Positions 6,947-33,273 of a DNA stretch of 51,427 nt are shown in pieces. The stretch comes from Rhodanobacteraceae bacterium (GTDB taxonomy: Bacteria; Pseudomonadota; Gammaproteobacteria; Xanthomonadales; Rhodanobacteraceae). The stretch's first letter is position 1, and every line of letters begins with the position of its first letter. The DNA lies in assembly GCA_035572335.1 (NCBI GenBank), contig DATNAW010000014.1, positions 1 to 51,427 on the forward strand, in the 5' to 3' direction. The position numbers and the translations under genes are program-made. Below the pieces are notes generated by a model. It did not search any database and was not told where the DNA came from. It saw nothing but the letters and a program-made list of their open reading frames with translations.

Positions 6947-6999
6947 TCGGACGGATCGTGTGTCGCAAGCGCCGAGACGCCACGGCGTATGCTGATCGA

Positions 7000-12946: not shown

Positions 12947-14086
12947 ATGATTTCTACGGCGCACACGGTGTTGTCCGCATGCATGGTCTCGCTGGGCGCA
13001 TCGGCACTTGGTTTGTGCGTACTCGTCCCGATCAGCAAGCCGTTCGGATTGCTCGATTATCCGGATGCCCGCAAGCGGCATGCTTTCGCAACCCCACTCG
13101 TGGGTGGCTTGTCCATTTTCGTCGGCATGCTGGCCGGCTGGATGTGGTTGGGACAGGCGCAACATTTCGATGACGTCGTGCTCGGCACGGCATGCATGCT
13201 GGTGCTGCTGGGTGCGCTCGATGACAAGTACGGCCTGCGGGTCGGCGTGCGGGTGGTCGTGGAGATCGTGGCCATCCTGGTCGTGATTTCCACCACCGGC
13301 GTGTACGTGCATTCGCTCGGCCTCCTGCACGGCTACGACCTCCAGTTGGGCTGGCTCGGCATTCCCTTCACCGTGCTGGCCGTGATCGGGCTGATCAACG
13401 CGTTCAATCTGATGGACGGCATCGACGGTCTGGCGGGCTGCCTCGCGCTGGTCAGCGCCGGCGCGATCGCACTGCTGATGGAGCCCGACATGCCGGCGCC
13501 GTTGACCATCATCGTGCTGTTGCTGGCCGCGGCGCTGTATCCGTTCCTGATGGCCAACCTCGGACTGCTCGGCCGCAGGGCCAAGGTCTTCCTCGGTGAT
13601 TCCGGCAGCGTGGTGCTGGGATACGTCATCGCGTGGACACTGATCGCGCTCAGCCAGAGTACGCCGCGCTACATTTCGCCCGGCCTGGTGCTCTGGTGCG
13701 TCGCGCTGCCGGTGATGGATACGCTCGCGGTGATCTACCGGCGCCTGAAACGCGGTGTGTCGCCCTTCACGCCGGATCGCACCCATATCCACCATTTGCT
13801 GATGAACGCCGGATGGGGCCCGCGCCGCACGTTGATCTGTCTGGTGGCGTTCGCCGTGGTCATGCCCTTCGTGGGCGTGGTGATCCATACGCGGCTGGGT
13901 CCGATCGCGAACCTGGTGGCGTTCGTGTTCGTGGCGTCGGCGTACGGCGCGTTCACCACGCACCTCGAGCGCAAGCAGGCGGTTGCGCAAGCGCCGGCGA
14001 AGGCGCGTGCGCCGACGCCGGTGTCCGTGTCCGTGGTGCGATCCTTGCCGGCGGCTTCGGCCCGCGAGCGCCGGCGCGTCGGCTAA
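12947..14086 (+). CDS. Undecaprenyl-phosphate sugar-1-phosphate transferase, WecA/MraY family (initiating glycosyltransferase)
   Basis: Polytopic membrane protein with the family motifs LGALDDKYGL and NAFNLMDGIDGLAG. Confidence 0.85.
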   Translation: MISTAHTVLSACMVSLGASALGLCVLVPISKPFGLLDYPDARKRHAFATPLVGGLSIFVGMLAGWMWLGQAQHFDDVVLGTACMLVLLGALDDKYGLRVGVRVVVEIVAILVVISTTGVYVHSLGLLHGYDLQLGWLGIPFTVLAVIGLINAFNLMDGIDGLAGCLALVSAGAIALLMEPDMPAPLTIIVLLLAAALYPFLMANLGLLGRRAKVFLGDSGSVVLGYVIAWTLIALSQSTPRYISPGLVLWCVALPVMDTLAVIYRRLKRGVSPFTPDRTHIHHLLMNAGWGPRRTLICLVAFAVVMPFVGVVIHTRLGPIANLVAFVFVASAYGAFTTHLERKQAVAQAPAKARAPTPVSVSVVRSLPAASARERRRVG

Positions 14087-15240
14087 ACGGTGGCCGGAAT
14101 CGTGCCGGGCGCGTCCAGCACTTCGCCGTAGGTTTCCAGCGTGCGGCGGATGACGATGCGTTCGTCGAACCGCGCCAGCGCCTTGGCACGGGCCGCCAAT
14201 CCAAGTTGCCTTGCCCATTCCGGCGCATCCAGCAAGCGCACGATCGCCGCGCACAATGCTTCGGCATTCCTGGGTGGCACGATCAAGCCGTCCACGCCGT
14301 CGGCGACCACGTCGCGGCAACCCGGCATGTCCGTAGTGATCAGCGGCGTCGCACAGGCCGCCGCTTCGATCAGTGACTTGGGCAAGCCTTCGCGGTAATA
14401 ACTTGGCAGCACGAAGATGTCGGTCGACGCGAACAGCGCCGGCATGTCGTCGACATGGCCGATCCATTCGACCGCGCCTTCCTCGACCCAGCCGCGCACG
14501 ACCGTTTCCGGGACCGCCGCAGGATTGCCGGGATCGGATGCACCGGCCAGGAGGAAGCGCACGCGCCTGCCCTGCGCGCGCAAGTTGCGCGATGCCTGCA
14601 CGTATTCGGCGAGGCCCTTTTCCCACAGCAGCCGCGCCGCCAGCAGCACGAGGGGCGGATCGTTGCGCGATGCGGACCGCGGCACGAAGCGCGCGCAGTC
14701 CACGCCGGAGCCGGCGATCACGCGCACGCGCGCGTCCTCAATCAGACCGTGGCGTTCGAACATGCGGGCATCGTCGGGGTTTTGCAGGATCAGCCGCGAA
14801 CGCCTGCCGCGCAGCGCCAGCCGCATCAGCGTGCGCACCAGCGGACGCAGCGCACGCGCGCGGCGATCGTCGCTGGCGAACACGTAACCCAAACCCGCGA
14901 CGGCGTTGATGCGCGCCGGCACGCCGGTCAGCATCGCGGCGAGCGAGCCGTACACCGCGCACTTGATCGTGAAGTTGTGCACCAGTGCCGGGCGTTCGCG
15001 TTTGAACAACGCGACCAATTCCGCGAGCGCGCGAACCTCGCGCCAGGGATTCAGGCTGCGGCGATCCATCGCCGGCAGCGGCATCCAGCGCAGGCCCAAT
15101 TCGCGGAAACGCGCGCCGTATTCGCCGGGCGGCGAGACCAGCAGCACGTCGTGGCCCGCAGCCTGCACCGCCAGCGCCAGCGAACGCCGGAAGTTGTAGA
15201 GATACCAATCGGTATTGGCGAACAGGATGATCCTGGACAT
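14083..15240 (-). CDS. GT4-family (GT-B) glycosyltransferase, last gene of the minus-strand operon
   Basis: N-terminus MSRIILFANTDWYLYNFRRSLA. EX7E-type motif region YYREGLPKSLIEAAACATPLITTDMPGCRDVV. Its stop overlaps the stop of the convergent transferase gene (14083-14086). Confidence 0.85.
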   Translation of the reverse strand: MSRIILFANTDWYLYNFRRSLALAVQAAGHDVLLVSPPGEYGARFRELGLRWMPLPAMDRRSLNPWREVRALAELVALFKRERPALVHNFTIKCAVYGSLAAMLTGVPARINAVAGLGYVFASDDRRARALRPLVRTLMRLALRGRRSRLILQNPDDARMFERHGLIEDARVRVIAGSGVDCARFVPRSASRNDPPLVLLAARLLWEKGLAEYVQASRNLRAQGRRVRFLLAGASDPGNPAAVPETVVRGWVEEGAVEWIGHVDDMPALFASTDIFVLPSYYREGLPKSLIEAAACATPLITTDMPGCRDVVADGVDGLIVPPRNAEALCAAIVRLLDAPEWARQLGLAARAKALARFDERIVIRRTLETYGEVLDAPGTIPATV

Positions 15241-15273
15241 GCGGCACCCGATGCGTGATGTGGATCCGCCGCG

Positions 15274-16380
15274 TCAGCGCGACGCCTGGCAGCGCGTCTC
15301 CACCCGATGGATCGCATCGGTGAACTGGTTGAAGTCTGGCGTCACCGGACCCGGCGCATACGGCCCGTCGGTCTGCCACGCGCTGCCGTGGCCGTAGATC
15401 CAGACGTACTGGTTGGCTGCCGCGTACGCGGCGCGGAGCCGATCCGCAAAACGTCCCGGACTTTCGCGCGCCGCCTTGTTGGTCCGCGTCGGACCGAGCG
15501 GCCACAAACCGGGCGCACCGCTGAGATGCATCGAAGCCACGCTCTTGCCCATCAGCTTGGCGAAATCAGCCTCGGTCCGCTGCACCGACGGCCCCATGCC
15601 GTTGGCGTTCCGGCTGTAGGTCTGTTCCATGCCGATCACGACATGCGACCACGGCACCGACAGCAGGCCGCGCATGAACGGCACCGCCATTTCGTAGCGG
15701 TTGTACTTCGGCATCTTCTTGGCGGTTTTCATCGCGTGCACGCCGGACTTGAACCGCTGCAGCAGCGTCGCGTAACGCTGCGTCTGGTCGAGCACATCCG
15801 GAAGCACGAACAGCGTCATGCCTGGATCCGCCTGGTGCATGGCTTCGCCGATCGCGCGTCCTTCCTGCTCGATCGTGGTCTCGAGTTCTGGGCCGGCCGC
15901 GGGCCCGCCCCAGATCGGGACGTACGGTTCGAGGTCCAGTGCGACGCCCTTCAGGCCGGCGTACTTCGCGAGCATTGCCGCGTGCCGGAAACGCGCGACC
16001 GCCGCATCGTTGCTCTGGGCGTTTTTCCAGTCGCGGGCCTTGTACGACGCGACCTTGATGAAGTTGTCGGTCACGCCTTCCTTTGAATACAGGGACTGGA
16101 ACTTCGCGACGTCCTGCCAGATCGGGCTGTCGGGATTGGTGCCGACGTCCTTTTGCCAGTGCGCCATCACGGAATTCAGGAAGAAGCCCTGCACGCCCAC
16201 GGTGCGGCCCCAATAGGCAGCCTGCTGCGCGTTGTTCTGGGTGCGGATGTCGAAGCCGTCGAACATCAGCAGTTTCGGGCATTGCGCGGCCAGGGCGAGA
16301 TGCCAGGGACCGGCCAGCAGCACCAGCAGTGCCGCCCAGCCGATGGACTTCAACGAAAACCGCAGCGTCGCTCCATTCAT
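15274..16380 (-). CDS. Secreted hypothetical protein; candidate polysaccharide-processing enzyme by context only
   Basis: ATG 16380 has AAGGAG 8 nt upstream (16389-16394 on the plus strand). Signal peptide MNGATLRFSLKSIGWAALLVLLAGPWHLALAA. No motif I can name; GVALDLEPY is the kind of acidic strand-end seen in TIM-barrel glycosidases, which is weak evidence. Confidence 0.5.
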   Translation of the reverse strand: MNGATLRFSLKSIGWAALLVLLAGPWHLALAAQCPKLLMFDGFDIRTQNNAQQAAYWGRTVGVQGFFLNSVMAHWQKDVGTNPDSPIWQDVAKFQSLYSKEGVTDNFIKVASYKARDWKNAQSNDAAVARFRHAAMLAKYAGLKGVALDLEPYVPIWGGPAAGPELETTIEQEGRAIGEAMHQADPGMTLFVLPDVLDQTQRYATLLQRFKSGVHAMKTAKKMPKYNRYEMAVPFMRGLLSVPWSHVVIGMEQTYSRNANGMGPSVQRTEADFAKLMGKSVASMHLSGAPGLWPLGPTRTNKAARESPGRFADRLRAAYAAANQYVWIYGHGSAWQTDGPYAPGPVTPDFNQFTDAIHRVETRCQASR

Positions 16381-16455
16381 GTTGCACACTCCTTCGTCGG
16401 TCCGGCGGACCACGGCTCGGCACGGTGTGCGACAGCCGCGTGCGGCTAGTCGTCG

Positions 16456-17136
16456 CTATGCGTGCCGCTTCGACCGCAGCAGGAAAATCATTTCCTGTGA
16501 AAGCGCCGGGGCAATCCAGGTTCTCGCCATGATGTCGAAATGCGGTGCGAGCTCCGCGCACGCTTCGACCAGGCTGCAGAAACACAGCGTGTCCTTCTGT
16601 CCGCCGAAGATCGCGGCACGCGTTCTCCGCCGCAGCGCATGGAAACCGTTTTCGATCCCGAACGACACGATCGTCCACGGCGCGACCCGCGCGAATTCCT
16701 GCAGCATGCGCGCGCGCAACGAGGAAGGCACGCGGTGCATCAGGCGCAGGCACGCCACCACGTCGAACGCGCCATTGGCGAACTCACCCAGGTCGGCTGC
16801 GTCGGCGACCCGAAACTCGACCTGTGAATGACCGGCCCTCGCGAATTCGGCTTCGGCCTGCTTCAGCATGCTGGTCGAAATGTCGGAGGCCACCACGCGG
16901 GTGCCCAGCGAGGCGAACACGCCCGCGAGCTTGCCGGTGCCGGCGGGGATGTCGAGCGCGCTGCGGTGCGGCACCCGCGCCAGCAAGTCCCTCATCACGC
17001 GCCGTTCGCGTTGCGCCACCACCCGCGAGGGAAGATTGCGCCAGCCACTCGGCGACATGAACATCGCGTGATAGCGCTGTGCGGTGGCTTCGTCCTGGTA
17101 GAACTTCCGTGTGTCACGTTCGTAATCAAATTCCAT
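16456..17136 (-). CDS. Class I SAM-dependent methyltransferase
   Basis: Motif I ALDIPAGTGKLAGVFASLGTRVVASDIS. ATG 17136 overlaps the upstream gene's end by 11 nt (ATGGAATTTGA), and this start removes an implausible Arg/Cys-rich extension. Confidence 0.75.
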   Translation of the reverse strand: MEFDYERDTRKFYQDEATAQRYHAMFMSPSGWRNLPSRVVAQRERRVMRDLLARVPHRSALDIPAGTGKLAGVFASLGTRVVASDISTSMLKQAEAEFARAGHSQVEFRVADAADLGEFANGAFDVVACLRLMHRVPSSLRARMLQEFARVAPWTIVSFGIENGFHALRRRTRAAIFGGQKDTLCFCSLVEACAELAPHFDIMARTWIAPALSQEMIFLLRSKRHA

Positions 17137-18034
17137 GGCCTGAACCGGACCTCTCCGCCCAATGTTCGAGTTGCACGAAATAGGCGGACAGATAGGGGCG
17201 TCCAATCCATCTCGACACGCCATGCAGCGCGCCCAAGGCCTTTTCCGCAAAATGCCGCCGCATGGCGATCGTTTCGTGCAGGAAATAATTCAGCAATACC
17301 GGGTCGATGGAGCACGACGCGGCATGCGCGTAAATCGACACCAGATCGCCAATGTCAAAGTGTGTCCATATTTTCGGCGAGCCGCCTTTACCCCAGCTAA
17401 CCATCAACAGTGAAATGATGAAACGCGCGAGATCATTTTCCGGCACCCCGCGGGAAACCACCTGCGGGTCGAAAAACGTCCACGCGCGGTGATGCGCGTC
17501 GTACCTGAAATTGCGCACCTCGAAGCCTTCGATGCAGAGCGTGCGGCGGCGCTCCTCGATGCGGCGCAGCACGTCGGCATCGGGATCCAGGAACACATCG
17601 ACCAGGTAATCCTTGAGCGGATAGTGCGACACCGCATCGGTGACCGCGTGCAACCGGGCCAGCAGCGATACGGCATCGCGAAGCGCCGCCGCGCGGTCGA
17701 TGCCTGGGCCATGCTGCAGCAAGCGTTCGCGCAGGTCGGGTCCGGACAAGTTGGGATACACGATGCAGCCGTGGTCCAATCGCAACGGCTTGCAGGCGCG
17801 TTCGTCGAGTTGGTGCAGCAATCGCATCGCGGCGTACTCGCGACGGGCTTTTTCCATGCACGCGGAATCGAGCCAGTCTCGCGCCGGATCGCCGCTGCTG
17901 CGGAAGATCTTGTAGAAGCGGTCCGCGGATGCGGCCACCCAGGATTCCTTGCGTCGCGTGAATGCAAGCGCGTCGATCCAGCCGGCGTCGGCGTGCGCAT
18001 GAAGTTCCTTCCGTGCGGCGGCCCGTTCGATCAT
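17126..18034 (-). CDS. Kinase-fold (APH/choline-kinase-like phosphotransferase) protein, catalytic loop apparently degenerate
   Basis: ATG 18034 forms an ATGA overlap with the asnB-like stop. Kinase-like landmarks: FYKIFR (beta3 Lys), EKARREYAAM (alphaC Glu), and TFFDPQVVSRGVPENDLARF resembling the APH IDxE...DLA segment. Where HGDxxxxN is expected the sequence reads LCIEGFEVRNF. Confidence 0.5.
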   Translation of the reverse strand: MIERAAARKELHAHADAGWIDALAFTRRKESWVAASADRFYKIFRSSGDPARDWLDSACMEKARREYAAMRLLHQLDERACKPLRLDHGCIVYPNLSGPDLRERLLQHGPGIDRAAALRDAVSLLARLHAVTDAVSHYPLKDYLVDVFLDPDADVLRRIEERRRTLCIEGFEVRNFRYDAHHRAWTFFDPQVVSRGVPENDLARFIISLLMVSWGKGGSPKIWTHFDIGDLVSIYAHAASCSIDPVLLNYFLHETIAMRRHFAEKALGALHGVSRWIGRPYLSAYFVQLEHWAERSGSGHGI

Positions 18035-20040
18035 GCGGCGATCCCGCGCACGGGCAAACGGTCGCGCGTCGTTTCCGCAAGCCACGCCTGGAACATCAAC
18101 ACGTCCCACAAGCGCGCGCCTTCGTCCGCGGCACCCGCAAGATGGCGCGTCCACAATTGCCGCACGTGGCCGGGTTCGAAATAGCCCTCCTCATGCAGCC
18201 GCCGCGCGTCCAGCAGTGCTTCCGCCCAGTCGCGCAGCGGCCCCCGCAGCCACGCGCCGATCGGCACCCCAAAGCCCTGCTTGGGGCGATCCATCAGCTG
18301 CCGCGGGACATGGCGATACAGCACTTCGCGCAGCAGCCACTTGCCCTGCCCGTTCCTGACCTTCTGTGCAAATGGCACGCGCCACGCGAATTCCACCACC
18401 CGGTGGTCGAGCAGCGGCACGCGCGCCTCGAGGCTCACCGCCATGCTGGCGCGATCGACCTTGGCCAGGATGTCGCCCGGAAGATACGTGACCAGATCAT
18501 CCAACATCATCCGTTCGATCACGCTGCGTGCGCTCAATGCGGACACGGGGTTGTCGAACCGCAGCGCAGGTTCGGTGGCGCGCAGCACCAGCTCCGCCGG
18601 ATGCCGGTGGTGCGACATCAGCACTTGGTAGCGTTCGCCCTGCGAGCCAGCCTGCAGCATGTCGGCGAGTACCCCGACCTTCGCTTGTGGACGCCTGAGT
18701 TTCAATCGCGCCGGCATGCCGCCGTTGATGGACGCCAGCAACGATTCATAGAATCCGCGGTGCAGCACGAGTGAACGCGCGGCTTGCCTGCGTGCGGCGG
18801 GCGGCAGCCAGTTGAAGCCGCGCTCGATGCTGCGCGCCGCGAAATAGCGGCGGTAACCGCCGAACAATTCGTCGCCGCCGTCGCCGGAGAGACCCACGGT
18901 GACGTTGCGGCGTGCCAGTTGCGCGACCAGGAAGGTCGGGATTTGCGAGGCGTCGGAAAACGGCTCGTCGAACATCCCGGGCAGCTTCGGCACCACGTCC
19001 AGCGCATCCTGCGCGGTGACATACAACTCGTGGTGATCGGTGTGCAGATGCTGCGCGACCGCGCTGGCGTGGGTCGCTTCGTCGTAACCCTTTTCGTTGA
19101 ACCCGATCGTGAACGTCTGCACCGGACGGCTGGACTGCGCCTGCATCAACGCGACCACCAGCGACGAGTCGATGCCGCCGGAAAGGAACGCGCCCAGCGG
19201 CACGTCCGCTTCCATCCGCAACGCCACCGCGTCGCGCAGCAGGCTTTCGAGTTCATCGGCGGCTTCGGCATCGGACAGGTGCAGGCGGTCGGCCATGCCC
19301 GCGGCCGCCGCGTCGCGTGCCGACCAGAACGGCTGCGTGTTTTGGGCGAGAACCGATTCGTCGGCCGCGGCTTTGGCAACGCTACCGGCATCGAGGGTGA
19401 GTATCGTGCCCGGTTCCAGCTTGCGCAGATCGCGATAAATGGTGTGCGGCGCCGCGATGTAATTGTGGCGCAGCAGCAGGCACAACGCGTCGCGATCGAT
19501 CGGGTTGTCGAAATCCGGCATCGCCGCGACGGCTTTGAGTTCCGACGCGAACACGAAACACCCACCGGCCGAGCCGAAGTACAGCGGCTTGATGCCGAGG
19601 CGGTCGCGCACCAGCGATAGCGTGCGTTTGCGGCGATCCCACAGCGCGAACGCGAACATCCCGATGAAATGTTGCAGGGCGCCGCGCAAGCCCCACCGTT
19701 CGATCGCGGCCAGCATCACCTCGGTGTCGGAATGTCCGCGGAACGTGGCGCCGGACTTCGCGAGTTCCTGCCGCAACGCGCGGTGGTTGTACACCTCGCC
19801 GTTGTAGTCGATCACGTAACGGCCGCTGGCCGAGACCATCGGCTGGCGGCCCTCGGGCGAAAGATCGATCACCGAAAGCCGGCGATGGCCCAGCGCAATA
19901 CCGGACGCGGCATCCTGGAAATAGCCCTCGTCGTCCGGTCCGCGATGGCGGATCGCGCGCGTCATGCGGCGCAGCGCCACCGCCGCGTACTCGGCGTCGA
20001 GGCGATGCGCAACATCCCAGAAGCCCGTTATCCCGCACAT
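18031..20040 (-). CDS. asnB: Asparagine synthase (glutamine-hydrolysing) family amidotransferase, polysaccharide-cluster type (WbpS-like role inferred)
   Basis: The true start must be ATG 20040, giving MCGITGFWD with the Ntn Cys2 nucleophile. PP-loop AFLSGGIDSSLVVALM. The ORF-track N-terminal extension is rejected. Confidence 0.85.
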   Translation of the reverse strand: MCGITGFWDVAHRLDAEYAAVALRRMTRAIRHRGPDDEGYFQDAASGIALGHRRLSVIDLSPEGRQPMVSASGRYVIDYNGEVYNHRALRQELAKSGATFRGHSDTEVMLAAIERWGLRGALQHFIGMFAFALWDRRKRTLSLVRDRLGIKPLYFGSAGGCFVFASELKAVAAMPDFDNPIDRDALCLLLRHNYIAAPHTIYRDLRKLEPGTILTLDAGSVAKAAADESVLAQNTQPFWSARDAAAAGMADRLHLSDAEAADELESLLRDAVALRMEADVPLGAFLSGGIDSSLVVALMQAQSSRPVQTFTIGFNEKGYDEATHASAVAQHLHTDHHELYVTAQDALDVVPKLPGMFDEPFSDASQIPTFLVAQLARRNVTVGLSGDGGDELFGGYRRYFAARSIERGFNWLPPAARRQAARSLVLHRGFYESLLASINGGMPARLKLRRPQAKVGVLADMLQAGSQGERYQVLMSHHRHPAELVLRATEPALRFDNPVSALSARSVIERMMLDDLVTYLPGDILAKVDRASMAVSLEARVPLLDHRVVEFAWRVPFAQKVRNGQGKWLLREVLYRHVPRQLMDRPKQGFGVPIGAWLRGPLRDWAEALLDARRLHEEGYFEPGHVRQLWTRHLAGAADEGARLWDVLMFQAWLAETTRDRLPVRGIAA

Positions 20041-20083
20041 GCCGGAAGTGTCCTGATCTGCACGCGTGATTGCGCCGACGTCT

Positions 20084-22062: not shown

Positions 22063-22099
22063 GCGAAGGGATTCCGGTATGGCATCGTCACGGGTGCCC

Positions 22100-25676: not shown

Positions 25677-25791
25677 GGCGTCCCGGCCGTCCTGGCCGGA
25701 AACGGAAAGCGCAGGCATCGCGATCATGACGGCTGTCCGTATGACGGCTTCATGCGGAAGCGGAGGTCCTGGTTGCCAGCCCGGAAATTTT

Positions 25792-26733: not shown

Positions 26734-27704
26734 GGTTTGGACGAAAGCGGCAACACGGTGGGATCGACATCGACACGCGGGCGGACGAACGCCAACCCGG
26801 AATTCCCGAGCCAATGCGCCAGATCGCGGCCGGTGATCGCTTCGAGCAGATGGATGTCCGGCGCGAAATGTGTCCGCATGTCGCGCAGCAGGCCGGAAGG
26901 AATATCCGGCGGCCGCGACGGCACGAAGCTGGCCTCCCGCAAGGCGTTCAAAACGCCAAGCCGCCGGATGCCCATCCGCTTCTTGGCGTACATCGCCAGG
27001 CGCACGACGGATTTTGGCGGCCTTTGCACGAGCGAAGCCAGCGTTTGCGAACGTGCCTGCGTGCGCGCGTTCACGACCGGGAATTCGCTGCGCCCGTCAT
27101 GCGGAAGATCGAGGAACGACAAGGCCTCGCGGTAAACCTTTGCGGGATCGGCGGAGAAATCCTCGAGGAACCACCACCGCACCTGCGACTTCGGAAAAAC
27201 ATCCAGCACACGCTGCAATTGCAATCCCAGCAGCGCGGCCTCATCGTAGAGCAGGGTCTTGCACTCGCGGCAGCGCGCCGGAATCTCGTTGCCGGCGCGG
27301 CGCTCTGCGCACAGCGCCCACGCTTGTGCGAAATCCGCGACGTCTTCGTCGCAATCGTGCAGCCGTTGGCCGTGCAGCGAGACCACCAGATCCAGCGGAT
27401 TGCGCAGCATCACCAGCAGGCGCGCGGAAGGAAAGCGCCGATGCAGTTCGGGCACGGCGACTTCCGAATGCATGTAGATGGTGGAACCTTCGCCGACCGC
27501 CCGATAGGTTTCGTCGGCGTCGCGGAACAGCGCTTCGTACTCGCTCCAATGCTTCGCGACGCGAATGGCCGGAAAGTCCAGCGCGAAAAACGCGGGCTCC
27601 TTCGGAACGCACATGAACACATCCGGATGCGCGCCCAGGTAGACGCTCAGCGCGGTCGTGCCGCACTTCGGTGCTCCGACGATGAAGAAATTCGGCAGCA
27701 TCAT
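26730..27704 (-). CDS. PAPS-dependent sulfotransferase (copy 2 of a tandem pair)
   Basis: NFFIVGAPKCGTTAL and LLVMLRNPLDLVVSLH. Colinear similarity to copy 1 runs along the whole length. ATG 27704 (MMLPNF) forms an ATGA overlap with the flippase stop. The 709-aa ORF-track extension is read-through over the flippase gene in another frame. Confidence 0.8.
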   Translation of the reverse strand: MMLPNFFIVGAPKCGTTALSVYLGAHPDVFMCVPKEPAFFALDFPAIRVAKHWSEYEALFRDADETYRAVGEGSTIYMHSEVAVPELHRRFPSARLLVMLRNPLDLVVSLHGQRLHDCDEDVADFAQAWALCAERRAGNEIPARCRECKTLLYDEAALLGLQLQRVLDVFPKSQVRWWFLEDFSADPAKVYREALSFLDLPHDGRSEFPVVNARTQARSQTLASLVQRPPKSVVRLAMYAKKRMGIRRLGVLNALREASFVPSRPPDIPSGLLRDMRTHFAPDIHLLEAITGRDLAHWLGNSGLAFVRPRVDVDPTVLPLSSKP

Positions 27705-29065
27705 CGTTTGCTCGGGAGAGGCAAGATGGTCGGGTTCACGTGCAACCGCGTGCGGACGAACGTCAGGCCGGTTACGTTCCATGCCACGGCTCCGAGCGCG
27801 GTCGCGATCGCGGCGCCGATCAACCCGAATATCGGAATCAGCGCGACGCTGAACACCACGTTCAACGCGGCCGCCAATGCCATGAACCACGAAGCCTGGC
27901 GTTCGTAGCGTGTCATCGTCATCAGGAAGCCGGTGGGTCCGGTCATCGCGGCGACGCACTGGCCGGCCAGGATGATGAGCAGCGGAATGTAGGCAGCTTC
28001 CGCGAAGCCCTTGCCGAACAATTGCAGCGCCCAGTACCCGGCGATCGCGATCGCCAGCGCGACGGCGGCGGTGACCACGAACGTCAGCTTGGCTGCGTGG
28101 TGCACCAGCCTCGCCATGGTGGCGTGGTCTTCGGCCGCGTAGCTTTCCGCGATCATCGGCGCGAGGATCGTGTTGACCGCGGTGAGGCCGTACGCCGCGA
28201 TCGCCGCCAGCCGCACCGCCGCGTAATAGGGACCGACCACTTTCGCACCGGCGAGCGCACCGAGGATCAGGACGTCCACGCGGTTCGAAACGATCCCGAT
28301 CGCCGCCAGCAGGAACAACTGCCGCCCCAGCTTGAACCAGGCGCGCGGTTCGTAGCGTGGCCTGACGTGTTTCGCCGCGGCCGGCCACGCCCGCGACAGA
28401 TGCCACTCCGAACAGGCCACCGCGGCCAGCGCCGCGACCACGTTGGCCAGCATGATGCCCGGCGCGTCCAGCCGCAGGCCCAGCGGCAACGCGAGCACCA
28501 GCACCAGCACGATCAGGAACGCCGGCCGCACCAGGCTGTTGTACGCGCCGGAACTGATCGCCCGCTTGTAGCCGCGGAAAAATCCGCCGTTCAATCCGAG
28601 CTGCGTCAGCAGCGGCAGCAGCAGGAACGCCGCCAGCATCGTTTTCAGCGTGGCGCTGTCCATCCTGTCGCGCAGCGCGAACACCACCACGCCGCCGACC
28701 AGCATCACCGCGATGCTGCCCGCCAGCACCATTGCGCTGGTGCCGCGGCGCAATCCGCGCAGCGTGCCCCAATCCCTGCGGTGAAGATAGACCGGCACCA
28801 GGCGCACCACGCTGCTGCTTTGTCCCAGCAGCGACAGTACGCCCAGCACGCTGACCCATGACATCGCGTAGGCGTAGATGCCGTACTGCGATTTGCCGAC
28901 CAGCCGCGCCAGCAGCACGTTGACGATCAGGGCGAATGCCGCGCCGCCCACCTGCACCAGCAGTGCGCCGGAAGCGCCGCGGCGGAGCAGGCGCGTGGCC
29001 GCGGCGAAATCCGCGTGGGGCCGTTCCGGTCGCGCTGCCACAGCGTCGGTCGCTTCAACCGACAT
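27701..29065 (-). CDS. wzx: Wzx-type oligosaccharide flippase (MOP superfamily polysaccharide biosynthesis protein)
   Basis: 454 aa and hydrophobic throughout, with about 12 or more TM segments. The N-terminal RRGASGALLVQVGGAAFALIVNVLLARLVGKSQYGIYAY is typical of Wzx/RfbX-like proteins. It sits next to wzc. Confidence 0.75.
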   Translation of the reverse strand: MSVEATDAVAARPERPHADFAAATRLLRRGASGALLVQVGGAAFALIVNVLLARLVGKSQYGIYAYAMSWVSVLGVLSLLGQSSSVVRLVPVYLHRRDWGTLRGLRRGTSAMVLAGSIAVMLVGGVVVFALRDRMDSATLKTMLAAFLLLPLLTQLGLNGGFFRGYKRAISSGAYNSLVRPAFLIVLVLVLALPLGLRLDAPGIMLANVVAALAAVACSEWHLSRAWPAAAKHVRPRYEPRAWFKLGRQLFLLAAIGIVSNRVDVLILGALAGAKVVGPYYAAVRLAAIAAYGLTAVNTILAPMIAESYAAEDHATMARLVHHAAKLTFVVTAAVALAIAIAGYWALQLFGKGFAEAAYIPLLIILAGQCVAAMTGPTGFLMTMTRYERQASWFMALAAALNVVFSVALIPIFGLIGAAIATALGAVAWNVTGLTFVRTRLHVNPTILPLPSKR

Positions 29066-29113
29066 CGTCCTGCTTCCCCGGTGGCGCAGGTTCCGCGGTG
29101 GTCGCGATGCGCG

Positions 29114-31375
29114 TCATTGCACGTATCCGTCACCCTGGTAACCGTAGGCGTTGAAGCCGCCGCTGCGCCGTTCCATGCCGTTGAACACGACGCCCTTGAT
29201 CTCGACGCCGCTCTGGCGGAAGCGCTGCATCGCCATTTCGACTTCGCGCGACTGGTTGAGGCCGAAGCGCACCACCAGCAGGCTGGTACCGACGTGGTGG
29301 CCGATGATCGTCGCGTCGGTCACCGAAAGGATCGGCGGCGAGTCGATGACGATCAGGTCGTATTGCGGCGACAGCTTGTCCAGCAGCGACGCGAAGCGCG
29401 GCCGCATCAGCAGTTCGGACGGATTGGACGGCCGCCTGCCGGCGGGGATGAAGTGCAGGTTGTCGACGTCCTCGACCAGGCGGATCGCTTCCTCGAGGAT
29501 GATCCGGTCGGCGAGCAGTTCGGAAAGGCCGTGCTCCGCGCGGCCGCCGAGGATGGTGTGCAGCTTGCCGTCGCGCATGTTGGCGTCGATCAGCAGGACC
29601 CGCTGTCCGGCCTGCGCGTTGATCGCCGCGAGGTTGGCGGACACGAACGTCTTGCCGGCGTTCGGGCTGGAACCGCAGATCATGATGCGGTTGTCGTCGG
29701 CGTCGGGCGCGGTGAAGTACAGGCTGGTGCGCAGGCTGCGCAGGGCTTCGGCCGCGATGTCTTCGGGCGCCGCCAACGCCAGCAGGCGTTGCCGGCGGCG
29801 CGAGAACAGGCGCGGGCCGCTTTGCGACAATGCGAGTTGCTGCTCGCTCAACGGGATCGCGGTGTAAACCGGCAGGCCGAGCTGCTCGATTTCCGCCGGG
29901 TCCTCCACGCCGCGCTTCATGAACTGGCGCAGGAACACGAACGCCAGCGCCAGCACGCCGCCGGCCACGGTGCTGCCTGCCACCGTGATCAGTTTCTTCG
30001 GCTTGGCGGGACTGGTGATGTCGACGTTCGGCTGGTCCACGATGCGTGCGGTGCCGACCGCGCCGGCCTGCGAGATCTCCAGTTGCTGTTCTTCGTTCAA
30101 CAAGCCGTTGTAGGTGGTGTCCAGCACCTGCACGTTGCCGTTCAGCCGCAACAGTTCGCGCTGGGTGTCGGGCAGCGTGTTCATCTGGCTTTGCATCGCA
30201 CTCTTGCGCGAACGCAGCATCGCGATCTGGTTGACGATGGCCTTGTAGGCCGGGTGCTCCGGCGTGTACAGGCGCGCCGCCTCCAGCTTCTGCGTCTCGA
30301 GTTGGCGCAGGCTGTCATCGACGCTGTTCAATTCCGTCAGCAGGCTCTGCGTCTGCATCGGCACGTCCACCGAGTGCGCCTTGATCTGGTAGGCGTTGAG
30401 CGCGGCCTGGGCCTGTTCCAGGCGTTGCTTCACCACCGGCAGTTGCTTCTGCACGAACTTCAGGCTGTTGGCGGATTGCGCGGAATTGCGGCCCACGTTC
30501 TGCGCCAGGAAAGCCTGGGTGATGTAATCGAGGATCTGCACGGTCAGATGCGGGTTGGTGCCATCGAGCGTCAGCGCGATCACGTTGGAACCTTGCTGCG
30601 CCGGCTGGGCATTGATCGACGCCTGCAGTCCGGCAATGGTGGTCGCCTCGTTGTTGCGGGTGACGCTGAAGTGCGTGCCCGGATTGGCATCCAGTTTCGC
30701 GACGCGCATGGTGATGCCGTCATGCTTCACCGTCTGGCCGACCTGTCCCTGCAACAGCACGCTGCCATCGAAGAAGGGAAGCAGGCCATCCTTGCGCAAG
30801 GTGTACGAGCCGTCCTTGCCCGCGACCAGCGTCAGCTCCTGTCCGAGCAGGCTGTTGGGCACGTCGAGTTGCGGGACATCGAGGTGCGAGCCGCCCCAGT
30901 CGTAACGCCCGAATCCCGGCCATGCGCTGGCGACGTCGCCCGGCTTGGCCGGCGTGTAGAACTGCGCGGCGAGCTCACCTATCAGCGGCACCCGGTAAGG
31001 CGCAACCACGATGTTGAGGTTGAGCGCGTCGACCGCCTTCTTCACCACCGAATACGACGTGAGGATCGATACCGCGTCGGTGGATTCGGGATTGGATGCG
31101 CCCACCGCCTGTTCGACCGCGGTAATGCCGGGCAGCGTCGGAGCCTGTTCGACCTGCAACAGGGCGGAGGCCTCGTAGACCGGACGCGCGAGGAATACAT
31201 AGACGAGTCCCAGCACGAAGAAGATCGCGGTCACCGTGATGATGAGCCGCTTGTGGTCGATCAGCGTGCCGAGTAGTGCGCGCAGGTCGATTTCCTCGCC
31301 GGCCTGCTCGATCGGCAGCGCCCGCGCGTCGATGAACGCGCTTCGGGAATATTCAAGTCGTTGTGTGGGCGTCAT
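29114..31375 (-). CDS. wzc: Polysaccharide co-polymerase/BY-kinase (Wzc/GumC-like tyrosine autokinase), first gene of the minus-strand operon
   Basis: ATG 31375 has GGAGG 6 nt upstream. N-terminal Wzz-like region with 2 TM segments. Walker A GSSPNAGKTFVSANLA, Walker A-prime VLLIDANMRDG, Walker B DLIVIDSPP. Short C-terminal Tyr cluster NAYGYQGDGYVQ. Confidence 0.9.
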   Translation of the reverse strand: MTPTQRLEYSRSAFIDARALPIEQAGEEIDLRALLGTLIDHKRLIITVTAIFFVLGLVYVFLARPVYEASALLQVEQAPTLPGITAVEQAVGASNPESTDAVSILTSYSVVKKAVDALNLNIVVAPYRVPLIGELAAQFYTPAKPGDVASAWPGFGRYDWGGSHLDVPQLDVPNSLLGQELTLVAGKDGSYTLRKDGLLPFFDGSVLLQGQVGQTVKHDGITMRVAKLDANPGTHFSVTRNNEATTIAGLQASINAQPAQQGSNVIALTLDGTNPHLTVQILDYITQAFLAQNVGRNSAQSANSLKFVQKQLPVVKQRLEQAQAALNAYQIKAHSVDVPMQTQSLLTELNSVDDSLRQLETQKLEAARLYTPEHPAYKAIVNQIAMLRSRKSAMQSQMNTLPDTQRELLRLNGNVQVLDTTYNGLLNEEQQLEISQAGAVGTARIVDQPNVDITSPAKPKKLITVAGSTVAGGVLALAFVFLRQFMKRGVEDPAEIEQLGLPVYTAIPLSEQQLALSQSGPRLFSRRRQRLLALAAPEDIAAEALRSLRTSLYFTAPDADDNRIMICGSSPNAGKTFVSANLAAINAQAGQRVLLIDANMRDGKLHTILGGRAEHGLSELLADRIILEEAIRLVEDVDNLHFIPAGRRPSNPSELLMRPRFASLLDKLSPQYDLIVIDSPPILSVTDATIIGHHVGTSLLVVRFGLNQSREVEMAMQRFRQSGVEIKGVVFNGMERRSGGFNAYGYQGDGYVQ

Positions 31376-32109
31376 GGGATACCTCCAGGTTCGCCCGGGT
31401 CGTGCAAAGGAAATACCGGATGCGCATCAGGGGCCGCGGACGGACGGTGCAGGCGAGAGGACGTCTGCGTTCGGGCGTGTTCCGGGCATGCGCTTGCGAT
31501 TTCATCCTTGGCGTCGCTCCGTGTGGCAATGCGGCCGCTGTCCACTGACACCTGTGCAGCGGCCGGTGTCTTTCGAGTGATTCGCCGCATCGCGGCGATT
31601 CGCGTGCGTCGACACGTGGTGCATGCCGTGTCGCGGACGTGTTCGAATCAAGGATTCTTGCAACGATGTGCTGAACGAAACCAGCACAAATAAAGCACGC
31701 TTTCCGAATGTTTATGCGTTCATGAAATAGACAGCCATATAAACGTGCAGAAAATGCAAGCCCATACAAAAACTTGTCGGCCGCATTCCCGCGGCATCAC
31801 GTTTCAATGACAAAAATAAATGACATTTCATTCAGCGAATTGCGCTGGACACGCCTGGATCGGCATGGCCTACTGCGGAGCACATCGTGGCGGGATGCAG
31901 TGCATTCGACCGCGATTCCGCGCGTTTTACGCTGCGCGCGATGACGTTGGTGGCGTGGCACGCCCGGCATCGCCGTTCATCGTGGCAAGCACCTCGTCGA
32001 ACGGCGGACGGCAGGTTGCCGGTGCGTCGCGCGTCATGTACCGGGTTCGAGCGTGTGCTCCGGCAACCCGCGCGGCACATGCATTTTCCTCATCTGCAAG
32101 GACATGGCC
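31376..32109. promoter_or_regulatory. Divergent promoter/leader region between wzc and wza, with an AT-rich core
   Basis: A 734-bp non-coding gap between divergent genes. The core at 31680-31850 is much lower in GC than its surroundings and contains a direct repeat AATGACA (31806-31812 and 31819-31825). ORFs called here are short with implausible composition. Confidence 0.45.
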
Positions 32110-33273
32110 ATGGAACGTTTGCAGCGGACCCTGAATGGAACGGATTCCGGCGCGCATGCTGCGCGCCGAATGGATGCATTGCGCAGGGCAAATGCCCTGC
32201 GCTGCGTTTTCGCGATCATCGCGTGTGCGGCGATGGCGGGCTGCGTGCCCGGCCAGAACGCTTCGCTCAATGTCCGCGCCGCCAACAACAATCCCGATTA
32301 CGTGCACCTGGTGCCGATCACGCCGCAGGTGATCGCCGCGCAAAAAGCCGCGAATCCGCCCGCGGAAGTTCCTTCCGCACTGCTCGATTATCAGCCGCAG
32401 GGATACCAGATCGGTCCCGGCGACACGCTGTACATCACGGTGTGGAATCATCCGGAGCTGACCTCGCCGGCAGGCAACCAGCAGGAGGCGGCCGCCAATG
32501 GACGCGTGGTGCAACCGGATGGTTCGATCTACTATCCCTTCGCGGGCAAGGTGCAGGCGGCGGGCAAGACCATCGAGCAACTGCGCCAGGATCTGGCCCA
32601 CAAGCTCGCCACCTATCTCAAGAATCCGCAGGTGGATGTCAGCGTCATCAACTACGGCAGCCAGCGCGTATCGCTGGAGGGCGCATTCACCAACACCGGG
32701 CCGCAGCCGATCCTCGGCGTGCCGCTGACGCTGGGCGAAGCGATGGGCAAGGCGGTGGTGGACGATCCCAACGCCAACCTTTCGGACGTGACGTTGACGC
32801 GCGATGGGCTGGTCTACCACCTCGACATCGACCAGCTCCAACACGAGGGCCTCGCCAAGACCATTTACCTGAAGGGCGGCGACCGCATCTTCCTGCCGTA
32901 CAACAGCCACCAGAAGGCGTTCGTGATGGGCGAAGTGAATCGTCCGCTCGCCGTCCGCTTCAGTTCGGCCGACATCAGTTTGTCGGAGGCGATCGGTGCC
33001 GCCGGCGGGCTGAACCAGGTCACCTCGGAGGGCAAGATCTACGTCATCCGCAACACCACGCAGAACGGCGATTACAAGGCCACGGTTTACGAACTGGATG
33101 CGAAGTCGGTGGTCGCGTTCGCGCTGGGCAGCCAGTTCGAGGTGAAACCCGGCGACACGGTGTTCGCTTCGGCTGCGCCCATCACGCGCTGGAATCGTTT
33201 CCTGACGCAGCTGCTGCCACTGACCAGCGCGCTCAGTTCGACCGCCGCGGCCCAGTACTACATCCAGCGTTGA
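32110..33273 (+). CDS. wza: Wza-like outer-membrane polysaccharide export lipoprotein
   Basis: Poly_export motif YQIGPGDTLYITVWNHPELT, SLBB-like repeats, and lipobox AAMAGC in RCVFAIIACAAMAGCVPG. ATG 32110 has AAGGA 7 nt upstream. ATG 32170 (MDALRR...) and the GTG at 32053 in the ORF track are alternatives. Confidence 0.85.
   Translation: MERLQRTLNGTDSGAHAARRMDALRRANALRCVFAIIACAAMAGCVPGQNASLNVRAANNNPDYVHLVPITPQVIAAQKAANPPAEVPSALLDYQPQGYQIGPGDTLYITVWNHPELTSPAGNQQEAAANGRVVQPDGSIYYPFAGKVQAAGKTIEQLRQDLAHKLATYLKNPQVDVSVINYGSQRVSLEGAFTNTGPQPILGVPLTLGEAMGKAVVDDPNANLSDVTLTRDGLVYHLDIDQLQHEGLAKTIYLKGGDRIFLPYNSHQKAFVMGEVNRPLAVRFSSADISLSEAIGAAGGLNQVTSEGKIYVIRNTTQNGDYKATVYELDAKSVVAFALGSQFEVKPGDTVFASAAPITRWNRFLTQLLPLTSALSSTAAAQYYIQR

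Follow-up and report, generated by a model that had tools for sequence, protein, structure and literature searches.

Sulfotransferase genes have been described within the Wzx/Wzy-type synechan cluster (xss) of cyanobacteria (PMC8205485) and are also present in marine polysaccharide loci (PMC11641403), while AsnB homologues of the WbpS type have been linked to the conversion of HexNAcA to HexNAcAN (PMC6025236). The locus analysed here, known from its genes, resembles synechan xss in carrying sulfotransferases inside a Wzx/Wzy cluster. Judged by its gene content, it is probably a family-typical Wzx/Wzy exopolysaccharide or capsule locus in a sulfotransferase-bearing variant, and the pathway type, Wzx/Wzy-dependent with Wza/Wzc export, can be predicted with near certainty. 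As far as the DNA indicates, the host is a soil-type Rhodanobacteraceae bacterium, whose 20-kb operon is predicted to serve the synthesis and export of a surface polysaccharide. The pathway itself is well known, and the locus is notable for its two putative sulfate-adding enzymes and for an orphan kinase-like/methyltransferase pair. A preliminary description had not recognised this combination of enzymes as any described cluster, which overstated its novelty given the synechan precedent, the recurrence of the same gene order in 34 Rhodanobacteraceae-type genomes, and the occurrence of the same enzyme mix in a Dissulfuribacterales genome.

The locus lies in a window of 51,427 nt (the whole stretch of DNA that was analysed; 65% GC) and comprises 16 genes, in all of which GC is distributed over the codon positions as in genuine coding sequence (GC3 0.74-0.88). 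An identical contig from an ENA metagenome, with its genes called independently, showed the same boundaries and overlaps, and the gene order, strands and seven overlaps given in the preliminary description were all borne out (Table 1). Start and stop codons overlap by 4 nt at 27701, 26730, 24534 and 18031, by 1 nt at 23320 (wzy-like/GT4), by 16 nt at 20923 and by 11 nt at 17126, and the remaining co-directional junctions have gaps of 33-75 nt; the convergent wecA-like and GT4 genes also share 4 nt at their stop codons. These overlaps and short gaps agree with the earlier view of the 14 co-directional minus-strand genes as a coupled unit, probably one tightly packed operon. In the divergent wzc-wza intergenic region, which is of similar size in relatives (729-866 nt), promoter consensus sites were no more frequent than expected by chance and an Rfam search returned no match; a terminator scan was, like the promoter scan, uninformative on a single transcript. 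Genes for nucleotide-sugar or PAPS synthesis, already reported as missing from the locus, were found nowhere in the 51-kb window, nor was a wzb or UDP-sugar dehydrogenase gene; precursor, PAPS and any Wzb genes would therefore be encoded elsewhere in the genome, the supply of uronic acid and PAPS being assumed.

Table 1. Features of the predicted polysaccharide locus, in order of position in the window
Feature	Coordinates	Strand	Basis
Initiating polyprenyl-phosphate HexNAc-1-P transferase, WecA/WbpL-like	12947..14086	+	PF00953 6.5e-32; about 11 hydrophobic segments
GT4 glycosyltransferase, last gene of the operon	14083..15240	-	Glycos_transf_1 4e-30; Glyco_trans_4_4
Secreted TIM-barrel protein, orphan family	15274..16380	-	AF2 pLDDT 85; (beta/alpha)8 pattern
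Class I SAM-dependent methyltransferase	16456..17136	-	Methyltransf_25 7.9e-17
Orphan kinase-fold protein (APH/choline-kinase fold)	17126..18034	-	AF2 pLDDT 88.5; Foldseek
Glutamine-dependent AsnB/WbpS-like amidotransferase	18031..20040	-	Asn_synthase 2.8e-123; GATase_7
Second SAM methyltransferase, probable, weakly supported	20084..20938	-	Methyltransf_12 26.4 bits, below cut-off 30
GT4 glycosyltransferase	20923..22062	-	Glyco_trans_1_4 1.7e-27; Glyco_transf_4 1.8e-20; core gene in related loci
Putative Wzy polymerase, polytopic membrane protein	22100..23320	-	About 10 hydrophobic segments; membrane topology and position
GT4 glycosyltransferase	23320..24537	-	Glyco_trans_1_4 1.8e-32; Glyco_transf_4 1.6e-26
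GT4 glycosyltransferase, PglH/PglJ-like	24534..25727	-	Glycos_transf_1 1.1e-38
Carbohydrate sulfotransferase 1	25792..26733	-	Sulfotransfer_1 9.7e-11; PKCGTT and RNPxDxxxS motifs
Carbohydrate sulfotransferase 2	26730..27704	-	Sulfotransfer_3 1.3e-12; Sulfotransfer_1 4e-8
Wzx flippase	27701..29065	-	Polysacc_synt PF01943 1.5e-20; about 11 hydrophobic segments
Wzc (PCP-2a) tyrosine autokinase/co-polymerase, first gene of the operon	29114..31375	-	Wzz, WZC_N, GNVR and AAA_31 domains
Divergent intergenic region wzc/wza, presumed promoter region	31376..32103	.	AT-rich centre, GC down to about 0.62
Wza-type outer-membrane polysaccharide export lipoprotein (OPX)	32104..33273	+	Poly_export 7.4e-27; SLBB_2; Wza_C

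Domains were assigned by Pfam and NCBIfam profile searches scored against curated cut-offs. At least one family model exceeded its curated threshold for the WecA-type PNPT, the four GT4s, Wzx, Wzc, Wza, AsnB, one methyltransferase and the two sulfotransferases, in support of the earlier assignment of the locus to the Wzx/Wzy type, with initiation by a WecA-type enzyme and Wza encoded divergently, and of most individual gene labels. Several NCBIfam equivalog models fell short of their cut-offs in the locus proteins: Wzc exceeded TIGR01007 and reached 632 bits against NF008568 (cut-off 1068), the WecA-like protein scored 273.5 bits with TIGR02380 (cut-off 326), and the Wza-type protein 282 bits with NF011658 (cut-off 333). 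The top NCBIfam match of the GT4 at 24534..25727 was PglH, at 147 bits and far below the cut-off of 600. Wzc carries a Walker A motif (GSSPNAGKT), a C-terminal tyrosine cluster (AYGYQGDGYVQ) and two membrane segments. Two of the earlier labels fared less well, namely those of the Wzy-like protein and of the methyltransferase-like protein, the latter being sub-threshold. The Wzy-like protein matched no Wzy family and no NCBIfam model, its single match, to PMT_2, being weak (20.8 bits; cut-off 26.1); predicted membrane segments, a predicted loop of about 70 residues (at about residues 260-327) and gene position nevertheless suggest a putative Wzy. Rhodanobacter loci have in the same slot a similar-sized gene without detectable similarity to it, and such a lack of similarity between genes in the same slot is typical of Wzy.

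The order wzx-(ST)-GT-GT-wzy-GT-(MT-like)-asnB-kinase-MT-TIM-GT/wecA was conserved in the 34 Rhodanobacteraceae-type species genomes, at the same chromosomal site and adjoining the same S9 peptidase genes. The last GT4 gene of the operon belongs to the conserved core (64-89% identity in all related loci extending that far), and the wecA-like gene adjoins the operon in most of them. The mix of Wzx, sulfotransferase, methyltransferases, GT4 and AsnB was also present in the Dissulfuribacterales genome.

Domain content was observed, and from it we infer the individual steps of the following mechanism. The WecA-like enzyme would transfer HexNAc-1-phosphate to undecaprenyl phosphate, and on this start four cytoplasmic GT4 enzymes would build a repeat unit with at most five sugars, in line with the earlier estimate of up to about five, which is a fair one. 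At the cytoplasmic face, soluble enzymes may modify the lipid-linked unit or nucleotide-sugar precursors: sulfate would come from the two paralogous PAPS-dependent carbohydrate sulfotransferases, the WbpS-like glutamine amidotransferase would convert a uronic-acid carboxylate to the amide, and one or two SAM methyltransferases would add methyl groups. The kinase-fold protein may phosphorylate a sugar, the phosphate or a neighbouring hydroxyl then being methylated by the adjacent methyltransferase. Wzx would flip the unit, the polytopic Wzy-like protein would polymerise it, Wzc and Wza would govern chain length and export, and the secreted TIM-barrel protein would probably act in the periplasm, trimming or processing the polymer. 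For each of the sulfate, methyl and amide decorations named in the preliminary description the locus encodes the enzyme class, with intact catalytic motifs; as to polymer chemistry, we infer all three substituents from enzyme class.

Methylation of the polymer is favoured, if modestly. The methyltransferase-like gene at 20084..20938 is accessory, and about one related locus in two has it; a profile built from 12 orthologues gave a weak match (E = 0.007) to Plu4895, an O-methyltransferase, and the family has an invariant LDVGASDG motif-I-like segment and YYVTD. The other, clearly assigned methyltransferase gene, at 16456..17136, overlaps the upstream kinase-fold gene by 11 nt, and both genes occur in 21 of the 34 genome-scan loci. 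A distant protein (P0437), whose gene adjoins a GT2 gene, is a natural kinase-like/methyltransferase fusion, its kinase-like part being matched by hhalign (93%) and its methyltransferase part by BLASTP (3e-19), and at another locus (L043) the gene of a GT4-kinase-like fusion (P0374) lies ahead of this methyltransferase gene and again overlaps it by 11 nt. The kinase-like gene and its methyltransferase neighbour are a conserved pair, and their fusion in one distant protein recalls WbdD; we propose that the two proteins work as a unit.

The kinase-fold label itself held only at the level of structure, with Foldseek matches to APH(2''), LicA choline kinase and 25-hydroxysteroid kinase (E about 1e-7, TM about 0.5), although the canonical catalytic Asp is missing. 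No Pfam, NCBIfam or PDB sequence match was obtained, nor one to any kinase family, and no membrane segments were predicted. Clustering shows a small family (104 clusters at the 90% identity level, and 42 at 50% with E < 1e-30), and its named sources and the 34 genome matches are all of Rhodanobacteraceae/Lysobacterales type or unclassified Gammaproteobacteria/Pseudomonadota. Its invariant residues are K42, E66, G170-F-E172-x-R-N175 and D189, and in a manual alignment to APH(3')-IIIa the catalytic Asp position is taken by the invariant G170, with the invariant E172 two residues on. The protein is an orphan, lineage-restricted one with an atypical catalytic loop, which could be a pseudokinase or have some other activity. 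That it is a pseudokinase or scaffold positioning the methyltransferase and the GT4s, the methyltransferase merely O-methylating a sugar, is a possibility of real weight: the HxD Asp is lost in this partly manual alignment, kinase-family sequence matches are lacking and the structural similarity is limited. Invariance of the ATP-site residues K42, E66, N175 and D189, a P0374 N-lobe above the Pfam APH threshold, and the conserved acidic E172, which suggests retained catalysis, speak against it. Phosphorylation by the kinase-fold protein is rather unlikely.

Turning to the sulfotransferases, the two proteins are paralogues (58% identical) with no predicted membrane segments. Both retain the 5'-PSB PKCGTT, the K-E-P segment and the 3'-PB RNPxDxxxS, and these PAPS-site motifs are invariant or at least 90% conserved among 30 family members. 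Sulfotransferase 1 is of the type common to one-sulfotransferase relatives (58-77% identity to the lone sulfotransferase of loci L003-L013 and L026), and the arrangement with two sulfotransferases recurs in just one further species (L002/L005). With sulfotransferase genes in 9 of 28 informative loci, they are an accessory module of the family-wide locus, outside its core. Sulfation of the polymer is likely on this evidence. An improbable alternative is that the enzymes have a different acceptor (glycolipid, small molecule or protein tyrosine) or idle without PAPS, as might fit the absence of PAPS genes from the locus, a family member that lies in no glycan cluster (L040), weak similarity to a tyrosylprotein sulfotransferase, and the accessory status of genes that cultured Rhodanobacter loci lack. 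Against these stand the conserved PAPS-binding motifs, the translational coupling of the genes between wzx and GT4, and homologues directly downstream of wzx in a cyanobacterial polysaccharide cluster and in the Dissulfuribacterales glycan cluster, the latter also with methyltransferases and AsnB. The nearest characterised relatives are likewise carbohydrate sulfotransferases: in the PDB, sulfotransferase 2 matched the bacterial sulfotransferase 3RNL (1.5e-30) and the heparan-sulfate enzymes NDST and 3-OST (1e-8 to 1e-3).

Slightly less probable still is a Wzy-polymerised LPS O-antigen, ligated to lipid A-core, in place of a capsule or exopolysaccharide. The WecA-type initiator, Wzx, Wzy-like protein and AsnB/WbpS-type amidotransferase are classic components of O-antigen clusters, and the product of group 1 capsule loci can also enter K-LPS; however, the co-polymerase here is a full-length Wzc tyrosine autokinase (PCP-2a), accompanied by a Wza OPX, and not a Wzz-only one, this Wzc/Wza architecture is retained in relatives, and no WaaL gene was found in the window.

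The amidotransferase, a core member of related loci with an intact N-terminal MCG nucleophile (Cys2) and PP-loop SGGIDSS (SGGxDS), exceeded the TIGR01536 cut-off (505 against 267 bits); on these features, uronamide formation has about an even chance. A PEP-CTERM/exosortase (XrtA) EPS system, suggested by the top NCBIfam matches of the amidotransferase and three GT4s to XrtA families (TIGR03108, TIGR03088), is very improbable, with scores that fall well short of the curated cut-offs (595 against 817 and 110-165 against 409) and no exosortase, EpsI-type or PEP-CTERM genes found in the window.

The protein previously listed as a secreted hypothetical does have a hydrophobic signal-like N-terminal segment, and its description can be refined to a TIM barrel. 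It had no Pfam, NCBIfam or PDB sequence match, and Foldseek returned generic TIM barrels only (TM 0.4-0.5), including GH18-like, GH84, Cwp19 and GH5 proteins but also proteins that are not glycosidases, old yellow enzymes and sugar isomerases among them. The predicted structure points to a putative enzyme of the periplasm, a glycoside hydrolase or one that processes the polymer, the hydrolase role being a tentative one. The gene is a core member of related loci, and residues D149 and E151 are invariant.

In the window, with about 65% GC, spurious open reading frames are plentiful, so frames were picked by codon-position GC, and the 16 genes of the preliminary description were all recovered in agreement with its list (see table). 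Independent gene calls on an ENA metagenome contig carrying an identical locus gave the same boundaries. Each of the seven overlaps that had been claimed between co-directional genes proved exact in the sequence (4 nt at 27701, 26730, 24534 and 18031, 1 nt at 23320, 16 nt at 20923 and 11 nt at 17126), and the other co-directional junctions were gaps of 33-75 nt. Two longer frames at the sulfotransferase (ST) genes, 25724-26776 and 26730-28859, were wrong-frame artefacts by codon-position GC. Promoter and terminator consensus scans returned counts at or below the shuffled expectation and thus say nothing on operon structure, and an Rfam scan of the whole window gave no match. When every protein was compared with the Pfam and NCBIfam models, most enzyme classes were firm, and those of the Wzy-like and methyltransferase-like proteins were weaker. 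The convergent wecA-like gene (+) and last GT4 gene (-) have stop codons overlapping by 4 nt (14083-14086), which leaves no space for terminators between the two transcription units; in relatives this junction is a gap of ~80-100 nt.

Genes of the polysaccharide locus, with the basis of each assignment
Feature	Position	Strand	Basis
WecA-like initiating transferase	12947-14086	+	PF00953
GT4	14083-15240	-	Pfam/NCBIfam
Secreted protein (predicted TIM barrel)	15274-16380	-	signal-like N-terminus, (beta/alpha)8 model
Methyltransferase, class I	16456-17136	-	Methyltransf_25
Kinase-fold protein (predicted)	17126-18034	-	AlphaFold2 model + Foldseek
AsnB-like amidotransferase	18031-20040	-	PF00733, TIGR01536
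Methyltransferase-like	20084-20938	-	sub-threshold in Pfam
GT4	20923-22062	-	Pfam/NCBIfam
Wzy-like	22100-23320	-	~10 membrane segments
GT4	23320-24537	-	Pfam/NCBIfam
GT4	24534-25727	-	Pfam/NCBIfam
Sulfotransferase	25792-26733	-	PF00685/PF13469
Sulfotransferase	26730-27704	-	PF00685/PF13469
Wzx	27701-29065	-	PF01943
Wzc	29114-31375	-	Wzz, WZC_N, GNVR + kinase domain
Wza	32104-33273	+	Poly_export, SLBB_2, Wza_C

The names of homologues and a genome scan place the organism in Rhodanobacteraceae. When 185,579 species genomes were scanned with a profile of the kinase-like protein, 34 loci were found, all in Rhodanobacteraceae/Lysobacterales-type genomes or in unclassified Gammaproteobacteria/Pseudomonadota MAGs, and the carriers included R. 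lindaniclasticus DSM 17932 and Rhodanobacter spp. FW102-FHT14D07 and B05. Searching the related loci by tblastn with the 16 proteins gave a single conserved order, wzx-(ST)-GT-GT-wzy-GT-(MT-like)-asnB-kinase-MT-TIM-GT/wecA, in which the STs, the methyltransferase-like gene (both in parentheses) and the Wzy sequence varied and some loci held extra genes. Since this one order is kept beside the same peptidase genes, we regard the locus as the standard EPS locus of the family Rhodanobacteraceae. Three S9 peptidase genes, one DPP-IV-like and one encoding a prolyl oligopeptidase, lie at 10141-12210 (-), 33331-35853 (-) and ~35911-38133 (+), and relatives also have S9 genes on either side, so that the locus has a fixed place on the chromosome. 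A megablast of the locus against a plasmid collection returned trivial asnB fragments alone, so the locus is not plasmid-borne and has no annotated relative in that collection. As extra genes, the related loci L003 and L004 (7299-8615, 10993-12342) carry a 438-aa member of the APH family (PF01636), placed between wzc and wzx, and a second Wzx-like gene. In L025, L027, L028, L031-L034 and L038, wzc and wzx are likewise separated by ~1.3-1.4 kb, and several loci had a ~1-kb gene inserted between asnB and the kinase-like gene.

Within this conserved order, the kinase-like gene and the methyltransferase gene downstream of it behave as a unit. The two genes overlap and occur together in 21 of the 34 genome-scan loci, and in the loci without this partner the other methyltransferase-like gene directly precedes the kinase-like gene. 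Two natural fusions provide Rosetta-stone evidence and are possible targets for biochemistry: P0437 (L042 258-1937), a 559-aa protein from a distant low-GC organism whose gene adjoins a GT2 gene, joins a kinase-like part (hhalign 93%, with K, E, GFEMRN and D conserved) to a methyltransferase part (BLASTP 3e-19), and P0374 (L043 1105-3138) joins a GT4 to the kinase-like domain, its gene being overlapped, again by 11 nt, by that of the same methyltransferase downstream. The kinase-like family is very small and lineage-restricted: it forms 104 clusters when grouped at 90% identity, and among 1.84 billion representatives at 50% identity 42 clusters had E<1e-30. The fused P0374 alone reaches PF01636 (28.5 bits); the locus protein had no Pfam, NCBIfam or PDB sequence match, even as a profile. 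Sequence and profile searches of the PDB likewise gave no significant match for the TIM-barrel protein, so that predicted structures alone were informative for these two. The AlphaFold2 model of the kinase-like protein (36 homologues, pLDDT 88.5) had top Foldseek matches that were all aminoglycoside phosphotransferases, choline kinase LicA, steroid kinase or similar (E 1e-7 to 1e-5, TM 0.45-0.57), which supports a predicted bilobal kinase fold.

Residues K42, E66, GFEVRN (170-175) and D189 are invariant in the family, and when the protein was aligned by hand with APH(3')-IIIa, N175 and D189 matched N195 (the Mg-binding Asn) and D208 (the DFG-type Asp), while the position of the catalytic Asp (HxDxxxxN) is G170, with the invariant E172 two residues on. 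Judged from these residues, activity is plausible but unproven given the non-canonical catalytic loop, and it is quite possible that the protein is a pseudokinase, the loop speaking for this and the invariant residues against it. We hold as rather improbable the reading in which the pair would form a new two-component module that adds phosphate or methyl phosphate to each Wzy repeat unit, using a loop with Glu in place of the HxD Asp. If this were true, the two STs and the amidotransferase would make the polymer a soil-gammaproteobacterial EPS that is sulfated, (methyl)phosphorylated and amidated, and to our knowledge such a combination of charge-tuning substituents occurs in no described bacterial polymer.

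The pair recalls WbdD of E. coli O9a, which combines kinase and methyltransferase in one protein and puts methyl phosphate on the O-antigen (PMC3482155). As in WbdD, a kinase-fold module is physically coupled to a class I SAM methyltransferase, through the gene overlap and the P0437 fusion, but the two domains of that fusion stand in the opposite order, a coiled-coil is lacking, and the catalytic loop is not of the usual type. Sequence similarity to WbdD was undetectable, WbdD being absent from the PDB sequence matches and the top 50 Foldseek matches of the kinase-like protein. The pathway logic also differs: WbdD ends the chains of a polymer that depends on an ABC transporter, and the locus pair would decorate each repeat unit of a Wzy pathway. 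Two other routes were discarded: a Campylobacter-style O-methyl-phosphoramidate pathway (glutamine-utilising enzyme, kinase and methyltransferases) for want of a cytidylyltransferase and of homology, and a phosphocholine (LicA-type) route for want of LicC/LicD-type genes.

The two STs are paralogues (58% identical) that both exceed the Pfam cut-offs and both keep the 5'-PSB motif PKCGTT (PKxGTT) and the 3'-PB motif RNPxDxxxS (RxxxxxxxS), PAPS-binding motifs that were invariant or at least 90% conserved across 30 family members. Their nearest solved relatives were a bacterial protein (PDB 3RNL, 1.5e-30) and the heparan-sulfate enzymes NDST (1.5e-8) and also 3-OST, and the family has 1,960 detectable members. 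STs adjoined wzx in 9 of the 28 informative related loci, the two-ST arrangement occurred in one other species only (L002/L005), and STs were absent from the loci of cultured Rhodanobacter strains. Further afield, of three distant family members sampled, two adjoin wzx, one of these in a cyanobacterial wzx-ST-GT-ST-GT cluster, and one is isolated from any glycan genes. That the STs act on some other acceptor and not on the locus polymer is unlikely, because they are translationally coupled within the operon and the position beside wzx recurs. A divergent ST-like gene (26-27% identical to those of the window) was observed directly after the kinase-like gene in L025 (11035-11856), L029 and L030, three related loci in which a wzx-adjacent ST is missing and asnB is inverted.

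Comparison with known systems shows that the decoration set is less unusual than first appeared. The preliminary description had not recognised this combination of modifying enzymes in any described cluster, a view countered by synechan, by a Dissulfuribacterales cluster and by the 34 related loci. In the xss cluster of Synechocystis sp. PCC 6803, STs within a Wzx/Wzy cluster have been characterised genetically and chemically, and the numbers of STs and GTs roughly predict the composition of the synechan repeat unit (PMC8205485). The present locus resembles xss in being a Wzx/Wzy-type cluster with two ST genes among glycosyltransferases; it differs in belonging to a gammaproteobacterium, in having four GTs against the eight of synechan, in encoding Wza/OPX at the locus, and in the additional amidotransferase, kinase-like protein and methyltransferases. 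By Pfam scans, no STAND or response-regulator gene of the XssQ/R/S type adjoins the locus. The Dissulfuribacterales cluster (L041 6652-15714, a MAG, GCA_049696115.1) reads wzx-ST-MT-MT-GT4-MT-AsnB-GT4, with an ST (48% identical) that overlaps wzx by 4 nt, and is surrounded by toxin-antitoxin genes; by its predicted genes it represents the same enzyme mix in another phylum. Marine loci offer a further likeness, namely ST genes inside a gammaproteobacterial polysaccharide locus. Cobetia marina KMM 1449 reportedly has a sulfated CPS and ST genes in its polysaccharide locus. In Vibrio sp. KMM 8419, a carbohydrate ST (ORF_404) lies beside a Wzx gene (ORF_402) in a putative O-antigen region, whereas the solved sulfated CPS is made via an ABC-transporter pathway from a locus that includes cysNDC genes for PAPS, and the genomes studied yielded no Wzy gene (PMC11641403); the ABC-transporter route, the locus cysNDC and the Wzy absence do not apply here. 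In the searchable literature, neither this gene order nor any Rhodanobacter was found linked to a solved polysaccharide structure. Thus, the enzyme classes and the operon structure of the preliminary description held, its claim of uniqueness was overstated, and the sulfate, methyl and amide chemistry is what we infer from the enzyme classes.

The assembly and export genes place the locus, itself uncharacterised, in the well-known class that combines Wzx/Wzy with Wza/Wzc, and the known pathway logic is unchanged by these findings. The initiating transferase matched PF00953 at 6.5e-32 (273 bits with the WecA model, under the equivalog cut-off), Wzx matched its family with 74 bits against a cut-off of 28, and Wzc scored 151 bits with TIGR01007 (cut-off 108) and carries a Walker A motif (GSSPNAGKT) and a C-terminal tyrosine cluster (AYGYQGDGYVQ). 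The Wzy-like protein has a loop of ~70 residues and, in Pfam and NCBIfam, matched neither Wzy_C nor an O-antigen-polymerase family, with PMT_2 alone appearing sub-threshold; its slot is kept in the related loci while the sequence turns over. As in E. coli group 1 capsule and colanic acid, cytoplasmic glycosyltransferases would build a lipid-linked repeat unit, and the locus has Wzx, a candidate polytopic polymerase, a Wzc autokinase of the PCP-2a type and the OPX lipoprotein Wza. Unlike group 1 capsule loci, wza here is divergent from wzc and not part of a wza-wzb-wzc order, the initiator is of WecA type and not WbaP/WcaJ type, the decorating enzymes are STs, an amidotransferase, a kinase-like protein and methyltransferases and not acetyl or pyruvyl transferases, and, in contrast to the group 1 capsule/colanic-acid type, precursor genes are missing from the locus. 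No gene of the 51-kb window has an LMW-PTP domain, and the cognate Wzb may be encoded elsewhere in the genome. Domain scans agreed with the earlier claim that nucleotide-sugar and PAPS-synthesis genes are absent from the locus and extended it to the flanks, where wzb, exosortase and waaL genes were also lacking within the 51-kb window. The WecA-type initiator would fit an LPS O-antigen cluster as well, a role made unlikely by the presence of Wzc and Wza.

The AsnB-like protein is full-length (PF00733 at 2.8e-123; TIGR01536, 505 bits against a cut-off of 267), with Asn_synthase and GATase domains, an N-terminal Cys nucleophile (MCGITGF) and a PP-loop (LSGGIDSS). AsnB-like WbpS enzymes have been linked to the amidation of HexNAcA to HexNAcAN in O-antigen and N-glycan pathways of P. 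aeruginosa O6 and H. pullorum (PMC6025236). The locus enzyme is like WbpS in being a full-length class II glutamine amidotransferase plus Asn_synthase protein within a glycan cluster, with Cys2 and the PP-loop intact, but the locus is without a WbpO/WbpP-type dehydrogenase/epimerase for HexNAcA, and the best-scoring specific model was not a WbpS model but the XrtA-type TIGR03108, under its cut-off. Membership of an XrtA/PEP-CTERM EPS system, to whose families the top NCBIfam matches of the amidotransferase and of three GT4 enzymes belong, was rejected because the scores fall under the cut-offs (TIGR03108, 595 against 817; TIGR03088, 110-165 against 409) and the window has no exosortase. For the methyltransferase-like protein, a 12-sequence profile touches O-methyltransferase at E=0.007 only, and a motif-I-like segment, LDVGASDG, is invariant. 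The model of the TIM-barrel protein is confident (pLDDT 85), and its Foldseek matches are generic, with glycosidases (GH18-like, GH84, Cwp19, GH5) mixed with unrelated enzymes, too generic for a glycoside hydrolase family to be named; in an EPS operon, a periplasmic polymer-processing hydrolase would be the most natural reading of the predicted fold.

Given this domain content, the individual steps may be pictured as follows. The WecA-like enzyme would start the unit on undecaprenyl phosphate, and the four GT4 enzymes would finish it, giving at most five sugars per repeat. Cytoplasmic soluble enzymes would decorate the unit or its precursors: sulfate from the two STs, with PAPS supplied from elsewhere in the genome, an amide from the AsnB-like enzyme, on a uronic acid made elsewhere, methyl groups, and possibly phosphate through the kinase-like/methyltransferase pair. 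Wzx would then flip the unit and the Wzy-like protein polymerise it, with Wzc and Wza responsible for regulation and export of the product, which may be trimmed by the TIM-barrel protein.

Polysaccharides that carry sulfate are prized as biomaterials. For bacteria other than cyanobacteria they have been described as barely known (PMC8205485), and the ST genes described here suggest that Wzx/Wzy-made sulfated polymers may be more widespread, including in soil and subsurface Rhodanobacteraceae. The locus is of moderate interest as a pointer to sulfated EPS among Gammaproteobacteria of the soil. Because related species, cultured Rhodanobacter included, carry the operon with zero, one or two STs, they form a natural comparison set in which the effect of sulfation could be studied, and the orphan kinase-like/methyltransferase pair and the orphan secreted TIM barrel are conserved, testable components of glycan decoration.

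The surroundings of the locus are rich in peptidase genes and also contain housekeeping genes: besides the S9 genes, the flanks hold genes for an M1 aminopeptidase and an M16 peptidase (42556-44430 and 49013-51271, both minus strand), as well as GST and UbiE. A 1452-aa ORF at 33775-38133 (+) was dismissed as a chimera, its 5' part being antisense to the real minus-strand S9 gene; it has coding-type GC3 in the 3' part only (~35911-38133), which encodes the prolyl oligopeptidase, and a minus-strand ORF at 35911-37725 is spurious. On the other side of the locus, a small group of genes at 3740-8085, possibly related to one another, includes two genes with PF13759 2OG-Fe(II) oxygenases, one fused to a TPR protein (3740-5557) and one standing alone (5558-6199, -). 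The other two encode a GDSL lipase (6254-6946) and a radical SAM protein (6958-8085), with a GH65 phosphorylase-like gene (320-2662) upstream.
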